DNA of 64,000 nt from an uncultured Gaiellales bacterium (GCA_964399135.1 CAYNPL010000011.1:28539-92538), one strand, 5' to 3'; shown: positions 2,598-50,418, counted from the first letter of the stretch. The notes: generated from the sequence alone by a model not told the origin. Numbers and translations are program-made.

Positions 2598-2948
2598 GTG
2601 TTCCCCAGCAGCCCGCGTGGGTAGCCATCTATCTGTGGCCGGCCGTTGCCGGACGGCTCTTGCGGCCAACCCGGAGACTCGGGCGAGCAACCCTCGGACG
2701 TCTCCATATTCGGCCTTGCACCGGGTGGGGCTTGCCTGGCCGTCGTGTCACCACGACGCCGGTGCGCTCTTACCGCACCATTTCACCTTCGCAGCCGGCA
2801 GCGCCGGTTCTGCTGTGTCATTTCTGTTGCGCTTTCCCTAGGGTTTCCCCCGCTGGACGTTATCCAGCACCCTGCTCTGCGGTGTCCGGACTTTCCTCGA
2901 AGACCCGCAAGGCGGATCCCCGCGGCTACCCGGGCTGCAGGAGAAGTA
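2598..2948 (-). ncRNA. rnpB: RNase P RNA, bacterial type A
   Basis: Minus-strand read contains GAGGAAAGUCCGGAC (P4), AGGGUGAAAUGGUGCGGUAAGAGCGCACC, ACAGAUAGAUGGCU near the 3' end, and P1 pairing CAGCCCG/CGGGCUG; no credible protein ORF; ends approximate +/-10 nt. Confidence 0.8.
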
Positions 2949-6046: not shown

Positions 6047-7018
6047 CTACGCCTCGTGCCGGCCGTAGCGGATACGCGGGTCGAGGAAGGCGTAACTGAT
6101 ATCGACAAGGAGGTTGATGATCATCACCAGTATGACGATGATGATGGTCCCTCCCATGACGATCGGCCAGTCACGCTGGCCGATGGCCAGGTACATCTCA
6201 TAACCGATGCCCGGCCAGTTGAACACCGTCTCGGTCAAGATGGTCCCCCCGATCATGGCACCCAAGTCGAGCCCAAGGAAGGTGACCACCGGGATGAGTG
6301 CGTTCTTCATGGCGTGCCGGCTGATCACCCGGCGATAAGAGAGACCTTTGGCCGAAGCGGTGCGGATGTAGTCCTGTCCTGTGACCTCCAGCAGCTGGCT
6401 GCGTTGGATGCGGGCCGCGTACGCAGTGGAGACCGCAGCCAGGGTGACGGCCGGGAGGATGAGATGCATGAAGTCGGGGAACCGGGCCGAGGACATGCCC
6501 GAGACAGGCAGGTAGGGCAGGCCCCATTCCCTGAACTTGACCCCGAAGATGACCTGCAGCATCATCCCCAGCCAGAAGACAGGGATGGACACCAACACCG
6601 ACGTGCTCAGCGTCACCAGGATGTCCCAAAACGAGTAGCGCTTGATGGCGGATATGACTCCCGCACTGATCCCGAAGACCATCTCGATGATGATCGCGGC
6701 CAAGGCGAGCTTGATGGTGTTGGGCAGCTTGTCCAAGAGGATGGAGGCGACCGACCGGCCCTTCTGATAGGAATCGCCCAGGTCGCCCTGCAGCAGGGCC
6801 TTCATGTAGTTTGCGTACTGGACGACCAAGGGCTCGTCGAGGCCGTACTTTTCGACGATCTGGTTATACAGGGTCTCGGAGATGGCCTTCTCGCCGGTGA
6901 TCATGCGGACCGGATCACCAGGCAGGATGCCGGGCGCCCGCAGGATGAAGAGGATGATGGTCACCCCGATGAACACCGGGATCATCTGGAGGATCCGGCG
7001 GATGATGTAACCGATCAT
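6047..7018 (-). CDS. oppB: peptide ABC transporter permease (OppB/DppB-type)
   Basis: 323 aa, MIGYIIRRILQMIPVF N-terminus typical of OppB/DppB permeases. Confidence 0.85.
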   Translation of the reverse strand: MIGYIIRRILQMIPVFIGVTIILFILRAPGILPGDPVRMITGEKAISETLYNQIVEKYGLDEPLVVQYANYMKALLQGDLGDSYQKGRSVASILLDKLPNTIKLALAAIIIEMVFGISAGVISAIKRYSFWDILVTLSTSVLVSIPVFWLGMMLQVIFGVKFREWGLPYLPVSGMSSARFPDFMHLILPAVTLAAVSTAYAARIQRSQLLEVTGQDYIRTASAKGLSYRRVISRHAMKNALIPVVTFLGLDLGAMIGGTILTETVFNWPGIGYEMYLAIGQRDWPIVMGGTIIIVILVMIINLLVDISYAFLDPRIRYGRHEA

Positions 7019-7124
7019 GCGGTGACCAAGGGGCAGGTATCAGCGGAGCCAAGGATGGGGCCCCCCGCGGGGGGCCCCATCCGAAACACACCTGACGTTG
7101 CTGGGAACACTAACGGCTGGGCCT

Positions 7125-8789
7125 CTATTGGGCGGCAGAGATCCAGACGACCGACAGGTTCGCAAGCCCCATGTTGTCGAACACGAAGCCATGGATGCGA
7201 TCCGATCCCACACGGCCGTGCCGGTAGACGTTGATGGGGATGACCGGGGCGTCGTCGCCGATCATCCGGTCGACTTCCTGATAGGCCTTGATACGGGAGT
7301 CGAGGTCGGGGTTGCTCCGCGCAGCCATCAAGGCTTCGTCGACCGCCGGATTGTTGTAGAAGGAATGGTTATCGGCGCTCGAGGAGTGGAAGAGCGGGAA
7401 CAGGAAGTTGTCCATGATCGGGTAGTCGGCCAGCCAGCCGAGACGGCCGACCTGGAACTCGCCCGCGTCCAGCTTGTCGAGGTACTGGGCCCACTCCACG
7501 CCGTCGAGCTTGCTCTTGACCCCGATGTCCAGGAAGTTGGCCTGCACCAGTGCCATCACGTCCTCATGGCCGCGGCCGCTGTTGAAACCGATGCTGATCT
7601 CGGGGAGGCCCTCTCCATTAGGATACCCGGCCTTGGCCAGCAGTTCTTTGGCCTGCTCGGGATCGTACTTGCAGTATGCCCACTGGTTGTCGAGATACCC
7701 GAGGATCCCGGAGGGGACGATGCCCGTGGCGGGAACCCGCATGCCTTCATAGACAGCGTCGCAGATGGCCTGGCGGTCGATGGCCAGCGAAAGGGCCCGG
7801 CGCAGGTCGACGTTCTTGATGATCTCGTCCTTGGTGTTCAACAGGAGGTAGTAGATGGAGACCTCAGGGCCCAGCAGCACCTGCTTGCCGGGTTCGACCG
7901 TATAGCCATCGGCGGACTCCCCGTACTCAGCCGCCACGGCTTTGACCTGGCCCGAAGGGATGACAGTGAAATCGAGGGTGCCGGCCTTGAACTCCAGGAA
8001 GGCGGTCTCGTCGTCCTTGAAGATCTTGAAGTCGACTCCGTCGAGGTAGGCCTCCTCGCCATAGAAGTCGTCGAAGCGGACCACCTTGATGTACTGGTCA
8101 TGCGCCCAGGGCTCGGCCATCATGAAGGGGCCGTTGCCGACCGGCTTCTCAGCGAACGCAGCCGCGTCCTTCTCCACCTCTTCCTTGGGCACCGGGCACA
8201 GAGACGGGTGGCTGACCACGAACTCGAAGTCGGCGAAGGGATACTCGAGAGTCACCTCGAGGGTGTAGTCGTCGACGACCTTGACCCCTTCCAACTCAGT
8301 GGCCGCACCGTCCTGCATGGCCTGGAAGCCCTTGACCGCGGACAGGTGGTAGGAGATCTCCGACTCGTTGACCGGGTTACAGATGCGCTCCCAGGCGTAC
8401 TTGAAGTCGGCTGCCGTCACCTTGCGCCCGTTATGGAACTTGCCGTCCTCGTTGAGCTTGAACGTCCACACGGTGGCGTCCGCGTTGGACTCCCAGCTCT
8501 CGGCGGCAGCGGGCACCAGCTTGCCGGCTTTGAAATCGAAAGCCAACAGGCTGTCGAACACGGAGTTGATGACCTGGATGCCCTCGGATTCCTGCCCGTT
8601 GACCGGGTCGATGAACGCGGGCTCACCGATGTAAAAGCTGAACGTGCCGCCCTTGACGGGCTTGCCACCGGCGCCTGTGGTGTCGGTAGTGCCCTCGTCA
8701 CCACAAGCGGTGAAGACCACCATCGTTCCGATCAGAGCCACCGCAAGGACGAGAGCAAGCCACACATGCTTTTTCCTCATCTGCTTCAA
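7125..8789 (-). CDS. oppA: peptide ABC transporter substrate-binding lipoprotein (family 5 SBP, OppA/DppA-like)
   Basis: 554 aa; signal peptide plus lipobox-like VFTAC, SBP_bac_5 architecture, first gene of the opp-type operon. Confidence 0.85.
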   Translation of the reverse strand: MKQMRKKHVWLALVLAVALIGTMVVFTACGDEGTTDTTGAGGKPVKGGTFSFYIGEPAFIDPVNGQESEGIQVINSVFDSLLAFDFKAGKLVPAAAESWESNADATVWTFKLNEDGKFHNGRKVTAADFKYAWERICNPVNESEISYHLSAVKGFQAMQDGAATELEGVKVVDDYTLEVTLEYPFADFEFVVSHPSLCPVPKEEVEKDAAAFAEKPVGNGPFMMAEPWAHDQYIKVVRFDDFYGEEAYLDGVDFKIFKDDETAFLEFKAGTLDFTVIPSGQVKAVAAEYGESADGYTVEPGKQVLLGPEVSIYYLLLNTKDEIIKNVDLRRALSLAIDRQAICDAVYEGMRVPATGIVPSGILGYLDNQWAYCKYDPEQAKELLAKAGYPNGEGLPEISIGFNSGRGHEDVMALVQANFLDIGVKSKLDGVEWAQYLDKLDAGEFQVGRLGWLADYPIMDNFLFPLFHSSSADNHSFYNNPAVDEALMAARSNPDLDSRIKAYQEVDRMIGDDAPVIPINVYRHGRVGSDRIHGFVFDNMGLANLSVVWISAAQ

Positions 8790-27255: not shown

Positions 27256-27328
27256 TGGAGGTAAGGGGACTCGAACCCCTGGCCTCAACGCTGCCAGCGT
27301 CGCGCTCTCCCAGCTGAGCTATACCCCC
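27256..27328 (-). tRNA. tRNA-Ala (anticodon GGC)
   Basis: Minus-strand read GGGGGUAUAGCUCAGCUGGGAGAGCGCGACGCUGGCAGCGUUGAGGCCAGGGGUUCGAGUCCCCUUACCUCCA; G3:U70 Ala identity pair; anticodon loop CUGGCAG; CCA not encoded. Confidence 0.9.
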
Positions 27329-40378: not shown

Positions 40379-41947
40379 TCAAACGCGAGAGGCAGATCCT
40401 GGTGCGATCATCCATCGCCCCAGGGGCAACGACGCCAAAGCGTCGATCTGGAGATACTGCGGGTAGGGCAGGGACGGTCCGGCCAGCGCGGCGGCGCCGA
40501 TCATGGCGGCGTTGTCGGTGCAGTATGCGAAGGGAGGCACTACCACGTGCAGGCCGGCGGCCTCCCCCCGCTCCCGCAAACGGGAGCGGAGCAGGGAGTT
40601 GGCCGCCACCCCGCCGGCCACAGCCAAGGTCCGCGCCCCCTCGCGGACGGCGCCGCGTACTGACTTCTGCACCAGCGCCTCCACGATGGCTTCCCGGTAC
40701 GAGGCGGCGACGTCGGCGGCCCGGGCCGCCCGTTCAGCAGCGGTCATCTGCCGGAGGAGGTAGTAGAGGGCGGTCTTGACCCCCGAGAACGAGAAGTCCG
40801 GCCGGGAGGACCTCTTCAGCCCTATGGGGAAGGTGAAGGCCCCCGGGTCGCCCCGCTCGGCGAGAAGGTCGAGTTCCTTGCCGCCCGGGTAGCCGAGGCC
40901 CAGAAGCCTCGCCCCTTTGTCAAACGCTTCACCCGCCGCGTCGTCCAGGGTCTGACCCAGCAGCTTGAAGGTAGTGCGGTCATCTGCCCGCACCAGCATC
41001 GTGTGCCCGCCGGATGCTACCAGGGTCACCGAGGGGAACGGCGCTTCCGGGTCGGCCAGCCACACAGCCGCCAGATGGCCGTGCAGATGATTCACGGGGT
41101 GCAGGGGAAGCCGCCGGCTCCAAGCGATGGCTTTGGCGGTCTGCACTCCCACCAGGAGAGCGCCGATGAGGCCGGGGCCGACCGTGACCGCCACCCCGCT
41201 CAGATCGCCTACGCCGCACCCGGCTTCCCGCAGGGCCTCGTTCACCACCAGGCTCATCCTCTCCACGTGGGCGCGGCTGGCCGCCTCGGGGACCACTCCG
41301 CCGTACCGCTCATGGATGATGTCCTGGGAATGCACCACCGAGGCCAGGACGGCACCACCGCGGGTGAGCACGGCCGCCGCGGAATCGTCGCACGACGACT
41401 CGATGGCGAGTAGCGGCGCCCCCCAGACATCCGCGGGCTCACGCGCCTGCACGCGTGCCTGCTCCTCGCCGGGGCCGGCGCCGACTTCGCCGGCCCGCCC
41501 CGGCCTCGCCGGGCGGGCCAGCACGAGCGCGTCTTCTCCCGTGTCGGGGTAGTAGCGCCGTCGCGCCCCCAGCCGGGCGAACCCCACAGAGGCGTAGAGA
41601 GCGAGAGCCGCCTCGTTCCCCGGCCGCACTTCCAGAAGGACGTCCCGGCTCGCTCTGTCGGCGGCTTGGAGGAACGCGGCGAGCAGACGCCTCCCCACCC
41701 CTTGCCGGCGAGCGGCGGGCGCCACAGCCAGATTCATCAGGTGCCAGACGTCCGGATACATCCGTCCGACCAGGTATCCGAGCACGGTGCCGTCCTCACC
41801 CTGGGCCACCGCTTTCCAGGCCAGCTCCTGCCGCAGCTCCTCGGCGAACATCTCCGGTGTCCAGGGGTCGGTAAACGACACGGCCTCGATTCCTGCCACC
41901 GCGTGCAGGTCCGTGGCCGCCATGGCTCTGATGACCACCCGCCCCAT
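40379..41947 (-). CDS. tsaD: in-frame fusion: ribosomal-protein-alanine N-acetyltransferase RimI (N-term ~150 aa) + tRNA t6A synthase TsaD/Gcp (C-term ~350 aa)
   Basis: GNAT motif RRQGVGRRLL (res ~80-90); ~35-aa Gly/Ala/Pro linker; TsaD begins PLLAIESSCDDSAAAV, HxxH motif HLHGHL, GGVAAN; single continuous frame. Confidence 0.8.
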   Translation of the reverse strand: MGRVVIRAMAATDLHAVAGIEAVSFTDPWTPEMFAEELRQELAWKAVAQGEDGTVLGYLVGRMYPDVWHLMNLAVAPAARRQGVGRRLLAAFLQAADRASRDVLLEVRPGNEAALALYASVGFARLGARRRYYPDTGEDALVLARPARPGRAGEVGAGPGEEQARVQAREPADVWGAPLLAIESSCDDSAAAVLTRGGAVLASVVHSQDIIHERYGGVVPEAASRAHVERMSLVVNEALREAGCGVGDLSGVAVTVGPGLIGALLVGVQTAKAIAWSRRLPLHPVNHLHGHLAAVWLADPEAPFPSVTLVASGGHTMLVRADDRTTFKLLGQTLDDAAGEAFDKGARLLGLGYPGGKELDLLAERGDPGAFTFPIGLKRSSRPDFSFSGVKTALYYLLRQMTAAERAARAADVAASYREAIVEALVQKSVRGAVREGARTLAVAGGVAANSLLRSRLRERGEAAGLHVVVPPFAYCTDNAAMIGAAALAGPSLPYPQYLQIDALASLPLGRWMIAPGSASRV

Positions 41948-43339: not shown

Positions 43340-44038
43340 CTACCACAGAGGCAACTGCTCCGCCCGCGGGGGCGCCGGCCGGGGAGGCACCGTCTCGACC
43401 GGTGGAGGCGTGGCTGCTTCCCGCCGTAGGGCGTCGGCGCCGTGCGCCAGCAAGAGCCGGAGCCGGCCGAAGTCCTCTTCCAAGACCTGCCTGTTCGCCG
43501 GGGTGTAGAGGGCCGCGGCTGGATGGAAGACCGGGAAGAGAAGGACGTTTCGTCCGCCCAGCTCCCGCTCCTTCGCCTTGCCGTGGATGGCGGTGATGCT
43601 CAACTCGGTGTCGGCCAGCAGCCTGGTGGCGAAGCGCCCCAACGTGCAGATGACCCGGGGCCGGATGATATCGATCTGCTGCATGAGCTTGGGACTGCAG
43701 GCCTCGATCTCCTCCGGAGCCGGGTCCCGGTTCTCTGGAGGACGACACTTGACCACGTTGGCGATGTAGACGTCACCGCGAGTAAGACCGATCAGGACTA
43801 ACAGTTCGGTGAGCAGCTTGCCCGCCTGGCCGACGAACGGCTCGCCCTGCCGGTCTTCGTGAAAGCCCGGTCCTTCTCCCACGAACATCAGAGCGGCCTG
43901 GGGGTCGCCGACCCCGAAGACCACCTGGGTACGGCTCCGGCACAGGCCGCAGTCCTGGCAGTCCCTCAGGGATTCATGAAAAGCCGCCAACGCCTGGGCG
44001 GCCGCTGCTCTGACTTGAGCTTGATCTTCCGCGCTCAT
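43340..44038 (-). CDS. udg: uracil-DNA glycosylase, family 4 (4Fe-4S type)
   Basis: 232 aa; CQDCGLC cluster motif, GEGPG, HPAAALY. Confidence 0.85.
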   Translation of the reverse strand: MSAEDQAQVRAAAAQALAAFHESLRDCQDCGLCRSRTQVVFGVGDPQAALMFVGEGPGFHEDRQGEPFVGQAGKLLTELLVLIGLTRGDVYIANVVKCRPPENRDPAPEEIEACSPKLMQQIDIIRPRVICTLGRFATRLLADTELSITAIHGKAKERELGGRNVLLFPVFHPAAALYTPANRQVLEEDFGRLRLLLAHGADALRREAATPPPVETVPPRPAPPRAEQLPLW

Positions 44039-44211
44039 GGTGCCCAGGTTAGCAGAACAGCGGCCGCCGCCGGGCGCGTCCCGTCAGTTGTCCGCTCTGC
44101 GACCGGCTGTTATGCTTCCCCGGCACCGAGCGCGCAGCGCGCCGCTCTCCGACCGGACCGCCTACCGAGCGGAGGCGTATCCAGCTGCCGGGAGAGGCTC
44201 CAGCGCGGGCG

Positions 44212-45237
44212 GTGAGAATGAAGAGCCGGGCCACGTCTGGTATCTCTGGCAGAACTGGAACAGGCAGGTATCTCATCGAGAGTGCTGACACATCTTTGCG
44301 TTTCGCGGTGATCGGCGCCGGCCGTTTGGGTGCGAGTCTGGCCATCGCTTTGCGCGATCGGGGTTCCACACTGACCGGGATCACGGCCCACACCCCGGCG
44401 GGGCGCGCCCGGGCACGGGCTTGGACCGGCGTGGAGGCGGCGCCCTCCATCGAGGGACTCGTCGTTTCCCGGCCTGACCTTTTCGTCATATCTGTTCCCG
44501 ACGACGCCGTCCGCCCTGTCGCTGCCGAGCTTGGGGCCCTACTGAAGGCAGAGCCAGGCCCCCGTCCCCCCGTGGTGTTGCACACGAGTGGAGCCACCTC
44601 GGTGTCGGCGCTGCTGCCCTGCGCCGAGGCGGGCTGCCTCACCCTTGTCTTCCACCCCTTGCAGACCTTCCCGGACCCCAGCGTCGGCGCCGGCCGATTC
44701 GCCGGCGCAGCGATAGCCGTCACCCCGGCCCCCTCTCCGGCGCAGCCGGCGGCGACCGCCTTCGGGCTGCGCCTGGCAGCCCTCTTGCAGGCCCGGCCCT
44801 TCCTGCTCCCCGACGAGAGAAGAGCCCTCTATCACGCGGCGGCCACGCTGGCCTGCAACTACCTGGTGACCCTTGAGGATCGGGCCCTGGCCCTTTTCAC
44901 AGAGGCCGGCCTGCCCGCTGCCGAGACGGCCTCCCTCGTCCTGCCGCTGGTCCGCTCCACTCTCGACAACATAGAGGCGGTGGGCACCGTGGCCGCCCTC
45001 ACCGGTCCCCTCAGCCGGGGAGACGCCACCACCATCGAGCGACATCTGGACGCCCTCGCCCAGGATTCCCCGGTCACGCTGCCGCTGTACATCTCCCTGG
45101 GTCTGGCCACTCTCGACCTGGTGGCCGCTCAGGGCACCCTCGATTGCACGCAGGTCGCCGGACTCAGACAGCTGCTCGCCCGCAGGATGCCCTCGCCGGC
45201 ACCCGTTCCCCAGGCGCCCTCCACTGCACTGGAATAG
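44212..45237 (+). CDS. Rossmann-fold NAD(P)-binding protein with DUF2520-type C-terminal domain (ProC/ApbA-like predicted oxidoreductase)
   Basis: FAVIGAGRLGASLAIAL dinucleotide-binding motif; start codon uncertain. Confidence 0.6.
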   Translation: MRMKSRATSGISGRTGTGRYLIESADTSLRFAVIGAGRLGASLAIALRDRGSTLTGITAHTPAGRARARAWTGVEAAPSIEGLVVSRPDLFVISVPDDAVRPVAAELGALLKAEPGPRPPVVLHTSGATSVSALLPCAEAGCLTLVFHPLQTFPDPSVGAGRFAGAAIAVTPAPSPAQPAATAFGLRLAALLQARPFLLPDERRALYHAAATLACNYLVTLEDRALALFTEAGLPAAETASLVLPLVRSTLDNIEAVGTVAALTGPLSRGDATTIERHLDALAQDSPVTLPLYISLGLATLDLVAAQGTLDCTQVAGLRQLLARRMPSPAPVPQAPSTALE

Positions 45238-45270
45238 AGACATAATGAGACTCAAGGAACGAGGGCCGAT

Positions 45271-45768
45271 ATGACAGCTGATGCCACCCCGCACGAGAAC
45301 AGGGAAGGAGCCCGCATGGCAACCGCATCCGAGTGCACCGGTCAGGTGACGGTGGCGACCGAGAGCCTGCGCTTCGATACGAAGGGCGACGCCGACATGG
45401 TCAACCTGACCGAACAGGTCCGCCTTGCGGTTAAACGGACGGGCCTGCGCGCGGGGACGGTGACGATCTTCGTCCCCGGAGCCACGGGCGCGGTCACCAC
45501 CCTGGAGTTCGAACCTGGGGTCGTCAAGGATTTTCGTGGGCTCTTCGACCGCATCGCCTCTGCCGGCGAGCACTATTACCACAACGATACCCATCCCGAC
45601 GTCAATGGACACGCCCACGTCCGTGCCGGTCTGCTGGGACCGTCGCTGGTGATACCCTTCGCGGAGGGCCGGCCTCTGTTGGGCCGCTGGCAGGAGATAG
45701 CCTTCGTGTGCTTCGACAACCGGCCGCGGGAGCGGACCGTGATCGTGCAGACCTTCGGTGTGCGCTAG
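45271..45768 (+). CDS. yjbQ: YjbQ/UPF0047 family protein (secondary thiamine-phosphate synthase enzyme family)
   Basis: 165 aa; TVTIFVPGATGAVTTLEFEPGVVKDF...NGHAHVRAGLLGPSLVIPF...GRWQEIAFVCFD signature. Confidence 0.75.
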   Translation: MTADATPHENREGARMATASECTGQVTVATESLRFDTKGDADMVNLTEQVRLAVKRTGLRAGTVTIFVPGATGAVTTLEFEPGVVKDFRGLFDRIASAGEHYYHNDTHPDVNGHAHVRAGLLGPSLVIPFAEGRPLLGRWQEIAFVCFDNRPRERTVIVQTFGVR

Positions 45769-45789
45769 CCTGCTGAGGAGGAGGGACCC

Positions 45790-47076
45790 ATGAGACCGGT
45801 GCTACAGCTCGCCCTCGACTTCGTCGACCTGCCCCGGGCCCTCAAGGTGGCCGAAGAGGCCGTCGCCGGGGGGGCCGACTGGCTGGAGGCAGGCACTCCT
45901 CTCATCAAGAGCGAGGGGCTGCAGTCTGTTCGTGAGCTCAAAGCCCGCTGGCCCCAACACACCATCGTGGCCGACATGAAGACCATGGACGCCGGCCGGG
46001 CCGAGGTCGAGTACGCCGCCAAAGCCGGAGCCCAGGTGGTGGGAGTGCTCGGCGCCGCTTCCGACGCCACTATCCGCGAGTGCGTCGAAGCAGCCCGGAA
46101 CTACGGGGCCGAGATCATCGTGGACATGATCCAGGTGCCGGACGTGGTGGAGCGGGCCAAAGCCGCCGAGGAGATGGGTGCCAGCTACGTCGGTATCCAC
46201 GTGGCCATCGATGAGCAGATGCAGGGCAAGACCCCCTTCGCCGTCCTGCGCAAGGTGGCCGAGGCCCTGTCGATACCGGTGGCGGTGGCCGGCGGTATCA
46301 ATTCCGAGACGGCCCCCCTCGCCCTCCAGGCGGGCGCCTCCATCGTCATCGTGGGCGGAGCCATCACCAAGGCCGCCGATGCCACGTCTGCCACCGCAGC
46401 CATCAAGCAGGCCATGGAGACCATGGTGCCGGTCCGGTCCGAGTTCTTCGTCCGGGCCACCGGGTCGGATGTGCGCGAGAAGTTGAGCCGGGTGTCCGCG
46501 GCCAACGTGTCCGATGCCTTGCACCGGAGTGGGGACATACCCGGCCTTCGCCCGCTCACTCCCGGCTCCAAGGTGGTAGGACCGGCCCTGACCGTCCGCA
46601 CCTACGCCGGGGACTGGGCCAAGCCGGTGGAAGCCATCGACAAGGCCAAGCCGGGTGACGTGATCGTGATCGACGCCGGGGGAGTCGGTCCTGCGGTCTG
46701 GGGCGAATTGGCGACCAACTCGGCCGTGCAGCGGGGCGTCGCCGGAGTCGTCATCTTCGGGGCCGCCCGGGACAGCGGCGATATCCGCTCGCTGGGCTTC
46801 CCTCTCTTCTGCACGCTGGTCACCCCCACCGCCGGCGAGCCCAAAGGCTTCGGAGAGATCGGCGTCCCCATCCGGGTCTCCGGCGTACGCATTTCACCCG
46901 GCGACTGGATCATCGCCGACGATGACGGGGTCTGTGTGATCCCCAAGGAGAAGGCGGTGGAATACACCAACCGGGCCATGGACGTTCTCGAACGGGAGAA
47001 CCGGCTGCGCAAAGAGATCCAGGCCGGCAGCACCCTCAGCCAGGTGGGATATCTACTGCGCTGGGAGAAGCGCTGA
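45790..47076 (+). CDS. fusion protein: 3-hexulose-6-phosphate synthase-like (OMP-decarboxylase fold) N-domain + RraA/MenG-family (class II aldolase/decarboxylase-like) C-domain
   Basis: 428 aa; N-half LQLALDFVDL...KTMDAG...VGVH; C-half (from ~220) RraA-like SDALHRSGDIPGLRPL...GDVIVIDAGG...AVWGELAT. Confidence 0.75.
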   Translation: MRPVLQLALDFVDLPRALKVAEEAVAGGADWLEAGTPLIKSEGLQSVRELKARWPQHTIVADMKTMDAGRAEVEYAAKAGAQVVGVLGAASDATIRECVEAARNYGAEIIVDMIQVPDVVERAKAAEEMGASYVGIHVAIDEQMQGKTPFAVLRKVAEALSIPVAVAGGINSETAPLALQAGASIVIVGGAITKAADATSATAAIKQAMETMVPVRSEFFVRATGSDVREKLSRVSAANVSDALHRSGDIPGLRPLTPGSKVVGPALTVRTYAGDWAKPVEAIDKAKPGDVIVIDAGGVGPAVWGELATNSAVQRGVAGVVIFGAARDSGDIRSLGFPLFCTLVTPTAGEPKGFGEIGVPIRVSGVRISPGDWIIADDDGVCVIPKEKAVEYTNRAMDVLERENRLRKEIQAGSTLSQVGYLLRWEKR

Positions 47077-47082
47077 GCTCCC

Positions 47083-47691
47083 ATGACGGTCTTCCGCTGG
47101 GTCGCCCCTGCCTTCAAGTGGAGTGGCCGGCGTTGGTCTGACGCCGATTTCCGCCTCCTGGCCGATCGTCTGCGCCCCCATGTCCCCCCGGGGGGCCTGC
47201 TTCTGGACCTGGGGGGCGGGACCGGCGAGCTCGGGGCCGGAGTGGCCGCGACTCTGGGCGCCCGGGTGGTGATAGTGGACACCACCGCCCAGATGCTCCG
47301 GCGGGTGGAACCCGGCCCCTCTCTGTCGGTCATGCTGGCACCCGCCGAAGCCCTGCCCTTTCCCGATGACCACTTCGACGCCCTTCTGTGTTCCGACGCC
47401 TTCCACCACTTCCGTGACCAGGCGGCGGCCGCCGCGGAGATGGCGCGGGTGGTGAGACCCGGCGGCGGCATCTTGCTGCTCGAGCCCGATGCCCAAGCGC
47501 GGGGCGCACGCATCCTGCGCTTGGGCGAACGGATGCTGGGCGAACCGGGAACCTTCAAATCCCCCCGAGAGATGGAGGCCTTCATGGCCGGCTTCGGCGT
47601 GGACGGGGTGAGCTCCCGCCTGCGGGGCCTCAGCTACATGTTTCTCGGTACCGTCTCCGCTCCCCCCGGCCAGGAGGGCGACCATGTCTAA
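47083..47691 (+). CDS. class I SAM-dependent methyltransferase (Methyltransf_11-like)
   Basis: 202 aa; motif I LLDLGGGTG, post-I VVIVD, motif II DALLCSDAFHH. Confidence 0.75.
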   Translation: MTVFRWVAPAFKWSGRRWSDADFRLLADRLRPHVPPGGLLLDLGGGTGELGAGVAATLGARVVIVDTTAQMLRRVEPGPSLSVMLAPAEALPFPDDHFDALLCSDAFHHFRDQAAAAAEMARVVRPGGGILLLEPDAQARGARILRLGERMLGEPGTFKSPREMEAFMAGFGVDGVSSRLRGLSYMFLGTVSAPPGQEGDHV

Positions 47692-48496
47692 GACCGTCCC
47701 CGCCTCGCGCTCCGCCTCCGGGCCGCCGGTCGCGCCGACGGCGGTCGTCACCGGCGCGGGGGATGCCCGTGGGATCGGCTTCGCCACCGCCCGCCGCCTG
47801 GGGCGGGCGGGTGCCGCGGTCGCGATCGTGTCCACTACCGACCGTATTCATGAGCGCGGGGAGGAACTGCGTCATGAGGGCATCGATGCCCTGTCTTGGG
47901 TGGCCGATCTGACCGAGCCCACCCAGGTGGCCGCTTTGGCCGGAGCGGTCCGCCGGTGGCGTCCCCGGGTGGACATCCTGGTGAACAACGCCGGCATGGT
48001 CTCTCTCAGCGCCGGTTGGGACGCCGACAAGCCGCTCGAAGAGCTCACCTTGGACGAGTGGGACCAGGCGTTGGCCCGCAATCTGCGCACAGCGTTCCTC
48101 GTCACCCGGGAGTTCCTCCCCGGCATGAAGGCCCAGGGTTACGGCCGCATCGTGTTCGTGTCCTCCACCACCGGGCCGGTGGTGGCCATGCCGTTCCAGT
48201 CAACCTATGCGGCTCCCAAGGCCGCCCTGGTGGGACTCACCCGAGCGCTGGCCTTGGAGGTGGCCCGTTCGGGGATCACCGTGAACGCCGTGGCTCCCGG
48301 TTGGATAGCGACGGGATCCACCCTGCCCGCCGAAGTCGAGGCGGCCCTTGCCTCCCCTATGGGACGGGCCGGCACCCCCGAAGAGGTGGCCGCGCTCATC
48401 ACGTTCCTGGCCTCACCGGAGGCCGCGTATATCAGCGGGCAGCTCCTGGTGATCGACGGGGGCAATTCGATCGTGGAGGACAAGGCCCACCCGTAG
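47684..48496 (+). CDS. SDR-family oxidoreductase (FabG-like)
   Basis: 270 aa; TGAGDARGIG, NNAG, catalytic Y-x3-K (YAAPKAA), C-terminal LVIDGG. Confidence 0.85.
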   Translation: MSKTVPASRSASGPPVAPTAVVTGAGDARGIGFATARRLGRAGAAVAIVSTTDRIHERGEELRHEGIDALSWVADLTEPTQVAALAGAVRRWRPRVDILVNNAGMVSLSAGWDADKPLEELTLDEWDQALARNLRTAFLVTREFLPGMKAQGYGRIVFVSSTTGPVVAMPFQSTYAAPKAALVGLTRALALEVARSGITVNAVAPGWIATGSTLPAEVEAALASPMGRAGTPEEVAALITFLASPEAAYISGQLLVIDGGNSIVEDKAHP

Positions 48497-48550
48497 AGCT
48501 GCCGCCGGACCTCGCTGCCGCCGGCTCGGGGGAGAAGGTGGCACCGTCTG

Positions 48551-49423
48551 CTAGGCTTCCACCACCATGTTGTCGATCAACCGCGTCTCGCCGAACCAGG
48601 CGGCCACCGCGACCAGGCACTTGCCCGAGATCTCTCGGACAGGCTTGAGGTCCTCCGCCCCCACGATCTCCGCATAGTCCACCCGGGCCAGCGGAGCCTC
48701 GGCGATCACGGCCAAGACGGCGGCACGAAGCGCACCCGCGTCCCGCTCCCCCCTCGCCACCAGCCGGCGCGCCTCCACGAGCGCGCGATGGAGCACGGGC
48801 GCCTGAGCCCGCTCCTCTCGCCCCAGCCGCACATTGCGCGAACTCAGAGCCAGCCCGTCGGCCTCCCGGACGGTGGGACAGGCCACCACCTCCACCGGCA
48901 GGTCAAGGTCGCGGACCATGCGCGTGACGACCGTCAGTTGCTGGAAATCCTTCTCCCCGAAGTAGACCCGGTCGGGGGTGCAGATGTTCAACAGCTTCAG
49001 CACCACCGTGCAGACCCCTCTGAAATGGCCGGGGCGCGAGGCCCCGCACAGCCCCTGGGTCAGCCCTTCCACCTCCACCCAGGTGGAGAATCCTTGCGGA
49101 TACATCTCCTCTACGCTGGGGCTGAAGACCAGGTCGGCGCCGGCCCGCTGGGCCAGATCCCGGTCCCGGTGCAGGTCACGCGGGTACGTCTCCAGGTCGG
49201 CGGCGACGCCGAACTGGGTGGGGTTCACGAACACAGACACCGCCACCAGTCCGTTCTCAGCCCGGGCCCGCCTGACAAGGGACAGATGGCCTTCGTGCAG
49301 CGCTCCCATGGTGGGGACCAGGCCCACGCTCCGCCCGCGCGCGCGGGCGGCACCCACTGCTGCCCTCAACTCGGCCACGGTGGCAAGACAGGGGATGAGG
49401 CGGGAAGGCACGGGCGCGCTCAT
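48551..49423 (-). CDS. panC: pantoate--beta-alanine ligase
   Basis: Real start MSAPVPSRLIPC at 49423 (track ORF over-extended); PTMGALHEGH, FGEKDFQQ. Confidence 0.88.
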   Translation of the reverse strand: MSAPVPSRLIPCLATVAELRAAVGAARARGRSVGLVPTMGALHEGHLSLVRRARAENGLVAVSVFVNPTQFGVAADLETYPRDLHRDRDLAQRAGADLVFSPSVEEMYPQGFSTWVEVEGLTQGLCGASRPGHFRGVCTVVLKLLNICTPDRVYFGEKDFQQLTVVTRMVRDLDLPVEVVACPTVREADGLALSSRNVRLGREERAQAPVLHRALVEARRLVARGERDAGALRAAVLAVIAEAPLARVDYAEIVGAEDLKPVREISGKCLVAVAAWFGETRLIDNMVVEA

Positions 49424-50418
49424 CGGCCCGCCTGTGACAGCGGGCCGGCAGGCGCCTCTGCCTCCGCGTCGGCCAGCCCGGGCACCCCGCCCAGGCCGCG
49501 GGCGAGCCTGACGGCCCGCCGCACACTCACTGCCACCGCCTCGGCGGCTCCCACCCCCACCTGGAACACGTTGCCCGCCACCCGCCCGGTCGCCAGCACA
49601 AAGACGCAATCGCCGTCCACGGGAGTGTGCACAGGGTCGATCGCCCGGGCGAAGCCATCGTGGCTCATCCGAGCCACGATGGCGCACTGCAGCTTGTCCA
49701 GACGGGCATCGGTGATGACCAGGCCCAGCGTGGTCGCCTCCACGGCGTTGAAGACCGGTGGGCTCGGCAGCGACAGCAGTAACCGCCTACTGTTCACAAA
49801 GGCACCGTCCCGCCGGGCCCCGGCCAGCACGGTGCCATCCTCGGCCAGCACGTCTCCCAATGCGTTGACGACCGTGAGGGCGGTGACGGTGATACCCGCA
49901 CCCACCTCGATGGTGGCCCACCCCACGCCGCCCTTCATGGCGTCGGCGATGCCGAGGATCTTGCCCACGGTGGCCCCTGTTCCCACTCCTACCGAACCTT
50001 CGGCAGGCGGGGAGGACCCCCCGTCCCATGCCGCAGCCGCCGCCGCGTAGGCGTCTTCGGGGCCCGGGCAGGCCGCAGCGTCCCCCAGGCCCAGATCGTA
50101 GATGACCGCCGCGGTCACCAGCGGGATCCGGGCATACATCGTCCGGTAGCCGCGGCCTTGCTCGCGCAAGAAGGTGGTCAGACCGACGGCCGCTCCCAGA
50201 CCGGGCGCACTTCCACCGGTGAGAAGGACCCCATGGAGCTCGCCCACCGAAGCGTACGGCGACAGCAGGGCCGTCTCCAGGGTACCGGGGGCACCCCCCC
50301 GGATGTCGACCGAAGCCGTCACCCCCTCGGGAGCAAGCACGGCCGTGCACCCGGTCAAACCCTCATAGTCCGAGCAGTGGCCGACAGAGACGCCTTCGAT
50401 CCCCAGTCCTGACGCCAC
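49420..50418 (-). CDS. P1/S58 family peptidase (DmpA/L-aminopeptidase D-Ala-esterase-like, Ntn hydrolase)
   Basis: 332 aa; DmpA_OAT fold pattern; 4-nt overlap with panC. Confidence 0.7.
   Translation of the reverse strand: MASGLGIEGVSVGHCSDYEGLTGCTAVLAPEGVTASVDIRGGAPGTLETALLSPYASVGELHGVLLTGGSAPGLGAAVGLTTFLREQGRGYRTMYARIPLVTAAVIYDLGLGDAAACPGPEDAYAAAAAAWDGGSSPPAEGSVGVGTGATVGKILGIADAMKGGVGWATIEVGAGITVTALTVVNALGDVLAEDGTVLAGARRDGAFVNSRRLLLSLPSPPVFNAVEATTLGLVITDARLDKLQCAIVARMSHDGFARAIDPVHTPVDGDCVFVLATGRVAGNVFQVGVGAAEAVAVSVRRAVRLARGLGGVPGLADAEAEAPAGPLSQAGR

Follow-up and report, generated by a model that had tools for sequence, protein, structure and literature searches.

[quoted passage not shown] On balance, the evidence tilts towards the fusion and the adjoining yjbQ acting together as a ketopantoate synthase that works without PanB and is fed by formaldehyde from sugars, in which a variant YjbQ is perhaps the missing isomerase. 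Such a supply of ketopantoate is probably a previously undescribed route, and a literature search returned no paper tying HPS-RraA or YjbQ to pantothenate. The synthesis of pantothenate and coenzyme A is regarded as solved in bacteria. Nevertheless, roughly one in three genomes sampled from the two phyla has panC and lacks PanB. We favor a PanB substitute because the genes are linked, the fusion and PanB have complementary distributions, the catalytic residues are intact and no isomerase could be detected; each point is laid out below.

The locus lies in a window of 64,000 nucleotides (the whole stretch of DNA analyzed) from an uncultured Gaiellales bacterium. The window ORF list shows five plus-strand genes separated by gaps of 33, 21, 6 and −8 nt. 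Gene 1 (44212..45237, 341 aa, Rossmann-like plus DUF2520) encodes a putative PanG-type ketopantoate reductase, gene 2 (45271..45768, 165 aa) a specialized YjbQ/UPF0047 paralogue that is the constant partner of the fusion, and gene 3 (45790..47076, 428 aa, OMPdecase/HUMPS plus RraA-like) the HPS-RraA fusion itself. They are followed by two variable passengers, a small class I SAM methyltransferase (gene 4, 47083..47691, 202 aa) and a FabG-like SDR (gene 5, 47684..48496, 270 aa). On the minus strand, panC (pantoate-beta-alanine ligase, 48551..49687) is convergent with the plus-strand unit. Domains were called by Pfam and NCBIfam profile searches of the window proteins, and these searches and the ORF list bear out the genes, folds and close spacing (21, 6 and −8 nt) given in a preliminary description of this DNA. 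A promoter and terminator scan of 43900-48800 gave nothing exceeding shuffled expectation.

The same description had treated the DUF2520 gene as a mere neighbor and left panC unmentioned; both turn out to be the key context, that of a pantothenate locus in genomes without PanB. The product of gene 1 matches PF10728 (DUF2520, 106.9 bits) and PF10727 (53.4 bits), both above the Pfam cut-offs, and Francisella FTT1388/PanG is a homologue of DUF2520 proteins (PMC4572677). A true PanE/ApbA is absent from the window's genome, the best match there (33 bits) being a generic Rossmann stretch. Because of its family, its adjacency to panC and the missing PanE, gene 1 is read as a putative PanG-type ketopantoate reductase. 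Genes of this type adjoin yjbQ-fusion and panC in 51 Thermoleophilia loci, and the position of panC next to the yjbQ-fusion module is likewise conserved in Thermoleophilia. Residues 101-375 of the PanC ORF match PF02569 with 360.8 bits; its N-terminus, as taken from the longest ORF, is probably about 100 codons too long.

The HPS-RraA fusion is real and widespread, and is not an assembly artefact. It aligns end to end with NF005442 (residues 2-428 to model positions 3-429 of 430, E = 2e-175), and its 583.5 bits fall 10 bits short of the curated cut-off of 593, which twelve Thermoleophilia relatives pass with up to 602 bits. Each of the 8000 database candidates scored was significant, and the best 120 of them are full-length proteins of 428-437 aa with 80-100% identity. 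Relatives are encoded at a further 421 genome loci, and 19 diverse bacterial and archaeal members are collinear over both domains in an alignment. The earlier worry that the fusion could be an artefact of two separate genes is dismissed by the 120 best full-length relatives and the 19 collinear members. For the NF005442/PRK07028 family we know of no published physiological role. That such fusions lack an established role, as noted before, agrees with Kono et al. 2017 on the MenG/RraA-like domain, whose function they stated to be unknown (PMC5241800).

The N-terminal domain (45790..46410, plus strand, fusion residues ~1-207) scores as a true HPS. Pfam places the OMPdecase/HUMPS match at residues 4-204, and TIGR03128 (RuMP_HxlA) gives 225.3 bits over residues 5-209, above its equivalog-domain cut-off of 200; against the HPS half of PDB 9LJ9 the domain scores 223 bits. 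The catalytic set of the OMPDC suprafamily (Asp, Glu, D-x-K-x-x-D and His) is present in the fusion, and D10, E33, D62, K64, D67, D112, H137 and D141 are invariant among the 19 diverse members. Work of the Gerlt laboratory is reportedly the basis for which positions define HPS versus KGPDC specificity. D112, I140 and A167 align with the HPS-enhanced KGPDC variant 1XBX, and positions 112/139/169 are of the HPS type rather than the KGPDC type. HPS activity (0.21 U/mg) has been measured for Mhun0647 of Methanospirillum hungatei, an 'HPS-MenG' protein (Kono et al. 2017; PMC5241800).

The C-terminal domain (46462..47076, plus strand, residues ~225-428) is RraA-like, of the metal-dependent 2-oxo-acid aldolase type, with 159 bits to PF03737 over residues 238-383 (Pfam), and is the only RraA-like sequence in the window's genome. 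R123-D124 of the HMG/CHA aldolase 3NOJ, its catalytic Arg and the adjoining Asp that binds the metal, correspond to R327-D328 of the fusion, which are invariant in the 19 members. G305 is also invariant, and the upstream Gly at the Gly101 position of 3NOJ is kept. D102 and E199 of 3NOJ correspond to E306 and E401, both conserved in most bacterial members. The score to the LigK/PcmE 4-carboxy-4-hydroxy-2-oxoadipate aldolase model TIGR02798 (102.3 bits) lies far below the cut-off of 304.5. The NCBIfam product name of NF005442 would make this domain an RraA-type RNase E regulator without aldolase activity; that name is hardly credible, as the RraA models NF006875 and TIGR02998 yield 67 and 39 bits against equivalog cut-offs of 136 and 241, and the domain keeps the Arg-Asp aldolase pair. 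E. coli RraA reportedly lacks this pair, a finding attributed to Mazurkewich and Seah in 2014. The product class of HMG/CHA-type aldolases is 4-hydroxy-2-oxo acids, and ketopantoate is such an acid; the previous suggestion of 4-hydroxy-2-oxo acids as substrates was thus near the mark.

The window YjbQ belongs clearly to its family (PF01894, 103.2 bits against a cut-off of 27; TIGR00149, 81.9 against 67.75) and matches the structural-genomics entries 1VE0 and 1VPH. Its true start may be an internal Met about 21 codons downstream. The canonical motifs of the family (H-T-T-A and N-x-D-x-H) are not found in this copy, which reads VPGATG, NGHAH and FDNRPR against the generic VPHTTA, NSDAH and FDGPR; the generic form is present as a second copy in the same genome (VPHTTA, NSDAH). 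In a quick IQ-TREE tree, the fusion-adjacent YjbQ copies from four phyla cluster together. Moreover, the specialized YjbQ occurs in 18 of the 21 fusion genomes lacking 6-phospho-3-hexuloisomerase (PHI) and in none of the three genomes with PHI; the three PHI-less fusion genomes in which it was not found are G151, G157 and G170. At one locus (L082), a SIS/PHI-like gene stands in place of yjbQ. A predicted complex of the fusion with YjbQ scored 0.00 in both runs, which says nothing for or against an association.

Co-conservation is limited to yjbQ and the HPS-RraA fusion, a pair that persists in no fewer than four phyla. Of 30 close loci, 16 have the methyltransferase downstream of the fusion, and among 80 loci it is absent after the fusion in the second Thermoleophilia clade and in other phyla; the SDR occurs near the fusion at just 4 of these 80 loci (L001, L011, L016 and L048). 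The methyltransferase has only generic Methyltransf_11/25 matches, with no NCBIfam model at cut-off, and a protein-atlas search with it returned generic class I methyltransferase clusters only. Similarly, all matches of the SDR are generic and under the equivalog cut-offs. These two genes are lineage-specific passengers outside the conserved core. The preliminary description had joined yjbQ, the fusion, the methyltransferase and the SDR into one pathway whose starting material, a sugar phosphate or a 2-oxo acid, ends up methylated and reduced as a precursor of a cofactor or solute. The spacing of 21, 6 and −8 nt on one strand in the window and the recurrence of the same order at L048 speak for such a pathway, but the methyltransferase is found nowhere beyond the 16 close loci, both passengers match generic families only, and panC directly follows the fusion in several relatives. 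Gene neighborhoods thus uphold the yjbQ and fusion part of the proposal and not the methyltransferase and SDR part; because the latter two are poorly co-conserved, a methylated, reduced product is unsupported, and the four-gene pathway is very unlikely. What had been seen as a four-gene cryptic pathway shrinks to a two-gene core with passengers.

The window's genome, with a completeness of 100% and a contamination of 0.12%, gave no match anywhere to PanB (PF02548) or to PHI; PanD was not found either. Among 151 Thermoleophilia genomes, 55 have the fusion only, 82 PanB only, 13 both and 1 neither, and among 101 genomes of the Planctomycetota, an independent phylum, the corresponding numbers are 34, 65, 1 and 1; these are raw genome counts without phylogenetic correction, and the pattern is partly clade-structured. 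All five fusion-less genomes in the fusion-bearing families f1 and f3 have PanB. PanB is missing from 19 of 24 other, hand-picked fusion genomes, and PanC is present in 17 of those 19. The Methanosarcina acetivorans control genome also has the fusion and no PanB match. One genome (G016), of the same genus as three fusion-bearing, PanB-less genomes of the sample, has PanB elsewhere, and its locus reads UDG, panG, panC and rho with the yjbQ-to-SDR block absent. PanB and the fusion occur together in 14 sampled genomes (13 Thermoleophilia and 1 Planctomycetota) and in 5 of the 24 hand-picked ones; therefore, the fusion is not always a simple replacement. Two further ideas were rejected. PanB is not located between panG and panC in fusion-less relatives, as it lies elsewhere in G016, G040, G050, G094, G110 and G014, and YjbQ or the fusion is not a PanD substitute, as the presence of PanD does not follow that of the fusion (both occur in family f6 and neither in f4).

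The co-occurring genomes would fit a reverse ribulose-monophosphate route, in which HPS makes ribulose-5-phosphate from hexulose-6-phosphate as in archaea, the aldolase only captures toxic formaldehyde on a plentiful 2-oxo acid (such as pyruvate, giving 4-hydroxy-2-oxobutanoate), and the link to pantothenate is incidental. The HPS domain is indeed closest to the archaeal HPS-PHI type, and archaeal Fae-HPS fusions are read likewise (PMC5241800). However, the window's genome has G6PD and transketolase and therefore does not need this route for pentoses, PHI is found in none of the 151 Thermoleophilia genomes, separate lineages link the module to panG, panC, panD or panE, and the near mutual exclusion with PanB recurs in two phyla. 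We consider the reverse route unlikely.

The linkage to pantothenate genes takes several forms. In the window, panG-yjbQ-fusion faces panC, and a second Thermoleophilia clade has the order panG-panC-yjbQ-fusion. In all 20 PanD-bearing genomes of family f6, panD lies 0.55-0.9 kb upstream of yjbQ-fusion on the same strand, and panE/ApbA is beside the fusion in L076 (Armatimonadota) and in L082, a 55%-identical homologue. The neighborhoods of archaeal homologues gave no informative gene context. It is also evident that folate genes accompany the module in places: folD immediately adjoins yjbQ-fusion in Planctomycetota and one unclassified bacterium, it is a module neighbor (L031, L035 and L041) or likely neighbor (L045) in four of the five hand-picked genomes with both PanB and the fusion, and pterin-binding, PTPS or FTHFS genes adjoin the fusion at other loci. 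These folD and pterin-type neighbors hint at a link to folate C1 metabolism. They could be explained by a C1 shuttle, a bacterial counterpart of Fae-HPS in which YjbQ, the RraA-like domain or both carry formaldehyde between hexulose-6-phosphate and methylene-tetrahydrofolate. Against this, the RraA domain has a 2-oxo-acid aldolase active site and not a pterin-binding fold, the neighbors in Thermoleophilia are pan genes and not folate genes, and the complementarity with PanB would be left unexplained unless PanB were still needed, and PanB was not found. A shuttle of this kind appears improbable.

For the PanB-substitute reading, the following steps can be proposed. The variant YjbQ would supply hexulose-6-phosphate as a stand-in for 6-phospho-3-hexuloisomerase, an assignment of pure inference. 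The HPS domain would then convert D-arabino-3-hexulose-6-phosphate into ribulose-5-phosphate and formaldehyde, and the RraA-type, Mg/Mn-dependent aldolase domain would enolize an acceptor, presumed to be 2-oxoisovalerate, and add the formaldehyde, giving 4-hydroxy-3,3-dimethyl-2-oxobutanoate (ketopantoate). The DUF2520/PanG reductase and then PanC would complete pantothenate. Because the HPS equilibrium favors condensation, the release of formaldehyde, the presumed direction here, must be pulled by downstream steps. In its fullest version, which we put forward tentatively, yjbQ and HPS-RraA may form a complete folate-independent system, with YjbQ as a non-homologous 6-phospho-3-hexuloisomerase, HPS freeing formaldehyde and the aldolase adding it to 2-oxoisovalerate.

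If this is true, a UPF0047 subfamily and the half of NF005442 named 'ribonuclease regulator' would each gain a first physiological function, and a widespread misannotation under that name would be corrected. In Thermoleophilia, many Planctomycetota, Firestonebacteria, Omnitrophota and some methanogens, the PanB gap would be filled, and auxotrophy predictions would change for methanogens and for uncultured bacteria of soil and sediment. Metabolic engineers would gain a compact aldolase that channels formaldehyde into the formation of C-C bonds.

Several known systems resemble parts of this module. The two-domain architecture is identical to that of NF005442/PRK07028, named 'bifunctional hexulose-6-phosphate synthase/ribonuclease regulator', whereas the RNase E regulator role in that name is unsupported by the residues of the fusion. 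With the archaeal Fae-HPS and HPS-PHI proteins it shares a common logic, HPS being fused to an enzyme that handles its product or substrate, and a shared purpose, formaldehyde capture or channelling or the supply of hexulose-6-phosphate. However, the partner here is an RraA-type aldolase and not Fae (tetrahydromethanopterin-dependent) or PHI, and the module is linked to vitamin B5 genes rather than to methanogenesis or pentose supply. The C-terminal domain has the fold of the HMG/CHA aldolase (LigK/ProA; PDB 3NOJ), an RraA-like class II pyruvate aldolase, and keeps its Arg123-Asp124 pair and Gly101 position, with acids aligned to Asp102 and Glu199; it differs in being fused to HPS and in its own invariant GDWAKPVEAID and AGEPKG motifs, and its substrates are expected to differ. 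To our knowledge, the generic YjbQ/UPF0047 family ('secondary thiamine-phosphate synthase') has no established physiological function. The window copy is a clear member of it, but represents a subfamily in which the His of HTTA is replaced by Gly and the Asp of N-x-D-x-H by His, and which is tied genomically to the HPS-RraA fusion. Compared with PanB (EC 2.1.2.11, PF02548), the fusion would likewise turn 2-oxoisovalerate into ketopantoate through metal-assisted enolate chemistry and would hold the equivalent pathway position, the two being nearly mutually exclusive across genomes. The proposed likeness is one of function only and not of membership, as the fusion has no sequence or fold kinship with PanB; it consists of two domains and is partnered by YjbQ, and its proposed C1 donor is formaldehyde from a sugar phosphate instead of 5,10-methylene-THF.

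Five plus-strand genes follow one another closely in the window, namely a 341-aa Rossmann-like protein with a DUF2520 domain (44212-45237), a 165-aa UPF0047/YjbQ protein (45271-45768), a 428-aa fusion of an OMPdecase/HUMPS (residues 4-204) and an RraA-like domain (238-383) at 45790-47076, a 202-aa generic class I methyltransferase (47083-47691) and a 270-aa FabG-like SDR (47684-48496). The ORF list gives intergenic gaps of 33, 21, 6 and -8 nt; the last three values and all five folds (DUF2520 Rossmann, YjbQ, HPS-RraA, methyltransferase, SDR; Pfam/NCBIfam domains) agree with the preliminary description, whose observation is thereby confirmed. [quoted passage not shown] All 8000 scored database candidates are significant, and the best 120 of them are full-length proteins of 428-437 aa with 80-100% identity; the top named relatives come from Thermoleophilia/Gaiellales metagenome-assembled genomes, which places the window in this actinomycetotal group. 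With relatives encoded at 421 genome loci and 19 diverse bacterial and archaeal members aligning collinearly, the fusion is genuine and not an artefact.

The earlier reading of the last four genes as one cryptic sugar- or keto-acid-modifying pathway is supported only in part. In a tblastn comparison of the window's proteins with 80 loci of species-representative genomes, followed by unbiased ORF clustering, almost every Thermoleophilia locus has yjbQ immediately 5' of the fusion, and this adjacency recurs in Planctomycetota, Omnitrophota and Firestonebacteria. Of 30 close loci, 16 have the methyltransferase 3' of the fusion, an arrangement found at no other locus; the SDR lies near the fusion in 4 of the 80, and panC directly follows it in several close relatives (e.g., L003, L005 and L012). 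Co-conservation is thus limited to yjbQ and the fusion, which form the core, the other two of the four genes being variable passengers at the convergent junction. At one locus (L048:6377-7185), the fusion-adjacent yjbQ is broken into overlapping ORFs (6377-6856 and 6757-7185), probably through a frameshift or a misassembly of that MAG.

Upstream of the cluster, uracil-DNA glycosylase, tsaE, tsaB and a rimI-tsaD fusion lie on the minus strand, the last being a single 522-aa ORF (40379-41947) that joins a GNAT (RimI-like) domain to TsaD. On the other side, panC (48551-49687, minus strand) is convergent with the SDR gene, with rho and then glpX beyond. Because Francisella PanG, an alternative ketopantoate reductase, belongs to the DUF2520 family (PMC4572677), the cluster is flanked by two pantothenate genes, panC and a putative panG; a true PanE was not found in the window's genome, where the top ApbA match (33 bits) covers a generic Rossmann stretch. 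About 100 residues precede the Pfam match in the longest panC ORF, so its true start is probably further downstream, and that of yjbQ may likewise be (internal Met at residue 22). Only three Rfam matches reach the gathering score in the window: a bacterial class A RNase P RNA (2601-2941, minus strand) and two tRNA genes (27256-27328; 61870-61942, minus strand).

The linkage to pantothenate genes recurs in varied arrangements. The window's family has the order panG-yjbQ-fusion with panC facing, a second Thermoleophilia clade has panG-panC-yjbQ-fusion on a single strand, and in a third family (f6) all 20 PanD-bearing genomes carry a same-strand panD 0.55-0.9 kb 5' of the fusion. A PanE/ApbA reductase gene lies immediately 3' of the fusion at an Armatimonadota locus, and two genes 5' of it at L082, which encodes a 55%-identical homologue (GCA_030622955.1). 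PanB, the usual ketopantoate-forming enzyme, is the sole pan product whose gene was never found beside the fusion at the loci compared.

PanB (PF02548) has no match anywhere in the window's genome (100% complete, 0.12% contamination). In raw genome tallies irrespective of kinship, 151 Thermoleophilia divide into 55 with the fusion only (including one fragment at a contig end), 82 with PanB only, 13 with both and 1 with neither, and 101 Planctomycetota into 34, 65, 1 and 1, respectively. Families f1 and f3, which bear the fusion, include five genomes without it, and all five have PanB. G016, from the same genus as fusion-bearing genomes, encodes PanB elsewhere, and its locus reads tsaE, UDG, panG, panC, rho, glpX and lacks the yjbQ-to-SDR block. 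PanB is absent from 19 of 24 hand-picked fusion-bearing genomes of other lineages, 17 of these 19 having PanC; among the control genomes, the fusion exceeds the cut-off only in Methanosarcina acetivorans, one of three that lack PanB. The two occur together in 14 genomes of the two samples and in 5 of the 24. Among the 252 sampled genomes, only G066 (Thermoleophilia) and G219 (Planctomycetota) lack both; each may be incompletely assembled, auxotrophic or dependent on a third route. PanD was rejected as the function replaced, since its presence does not track that of the fusion; it is patchy in Thermoleophilia (0/24 in family f4, 20/21 in f6). The window's genome has panC and no PanD match (PF02261).

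The window's genome has two YjbQ copies, a generic one (VPHTTA / NSDAH / FDGPR) and the fusion-adjacent one (VPGATG / NGHAH / FDNRPR). In a quick maximum-likelihood tree, a branch with SH-aLRT 98 sets fusion-adjacent YjbQ proteins of four phyla apart from 11 of 15 non-adjacent paralogues. True 6-phospho-3-hexuloisomerase (PHI) was not found in the window's genome (TIGR03127, top score 26.7 bits), in any of the 151 Thermoleophilia genomes, or in 21 of the 24 other fusion-bearing genomes. The Gly-type YjbQ, the form that adjoins the fusion in the window, was found in 18 of the 21 genomes without PHI and in none of the three PHI-bearing ones, and at L082 a SIS/PHI-like gene takes the usual place of yjbQ; this pattern fits a putative role of the variant as hexulose-6-phosphate supplier. 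Pentose supply is an unlikely role for the module in the window's genome, which has G6PD and transketolase.

There are also hints that the module is tied to folate C1 metabolism. folD adjoins it in four of the five hand-picked genomes with both PanB and the fusion (L031, L035 and L041 confirmed, L045 likely), and pterin-binding, PTPS and FTHFS genes neighbour the fusion at other loci, which makes such a link possible. In two Planctomycetota (L031:6054-7409 and L035:7558-8979), the FolD directly 3' of the fusion carries a response-regulator receiver domain at its N-terminus. This architecture is unusual and suggests that phosphorylation controls the interconversion of C1-folates. On the L082 contig (2550-9896, one strand), genes for a B12-binding protein, an S-methyl transferase, a pterin-binding protein and PanE/ApbA precede formate-THF ligase, the fusion and the SIS/PHI-like gene, so that the module lies within a set of methyl-branch/folate genes that also includes a ketopantoate reductase.

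On balance, and with moderate confidence, we favour yjbQ and the fusion as the core of a probable PanB-independent ketopantoate module. A putative formaldehyde-releasing domain joined to a predicted 2-oxo-acid aldolase in a PanB-less pantothenate locus makes a simple mechanism available: the YjbQ variant might furnish hexulose-6-phosphate, the HPS domain would free formaldehyde from it, and the RraA-type aldolase would add formaldehyde to 2-oxoisovalerate, yielding ketopantoate. Our literature search found no paper connecting the HPS-RraA fusion or YjbQ with pantothenate.

Compared with the HPS half of PDB 9LJ9, the HPS domain scores 223 bits; it carries HPS-type residues where HPS and 3-keto-L-gulonate-6-phosphate decarboxylase differ, and the Asp, Glu, Lys and His of its catalytic set are invariant in the 19-member alignment. 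HPS activity was measured for the Methanospirillum homologue, whose MenG/RraA-like half was described as of unknown role (Kono et al. 2017; PMC5241800), in line with the earlier remark that such fusions have no known biochemical role. The family is already catalogued, but its product name, 'bifunctional hexulose-6-phosphate synthase/ribonuclease regulator', claims a function that its residues do not support, and the RraA-like domain scores far under the cut-offs of the RNase E-regulator models. HMG/CHA-type aldolases form and cleave 4-hydroxy-2-oxo acids, the class to which ketopantoate belongs. The RraA-like domain aligns with HMG/CHA aldolase (3NOJ), keeping the essential pair Arg123-Asp124 as the invariant R327-D328 and having acidic residues at the positions of Asp102 and Glu199.
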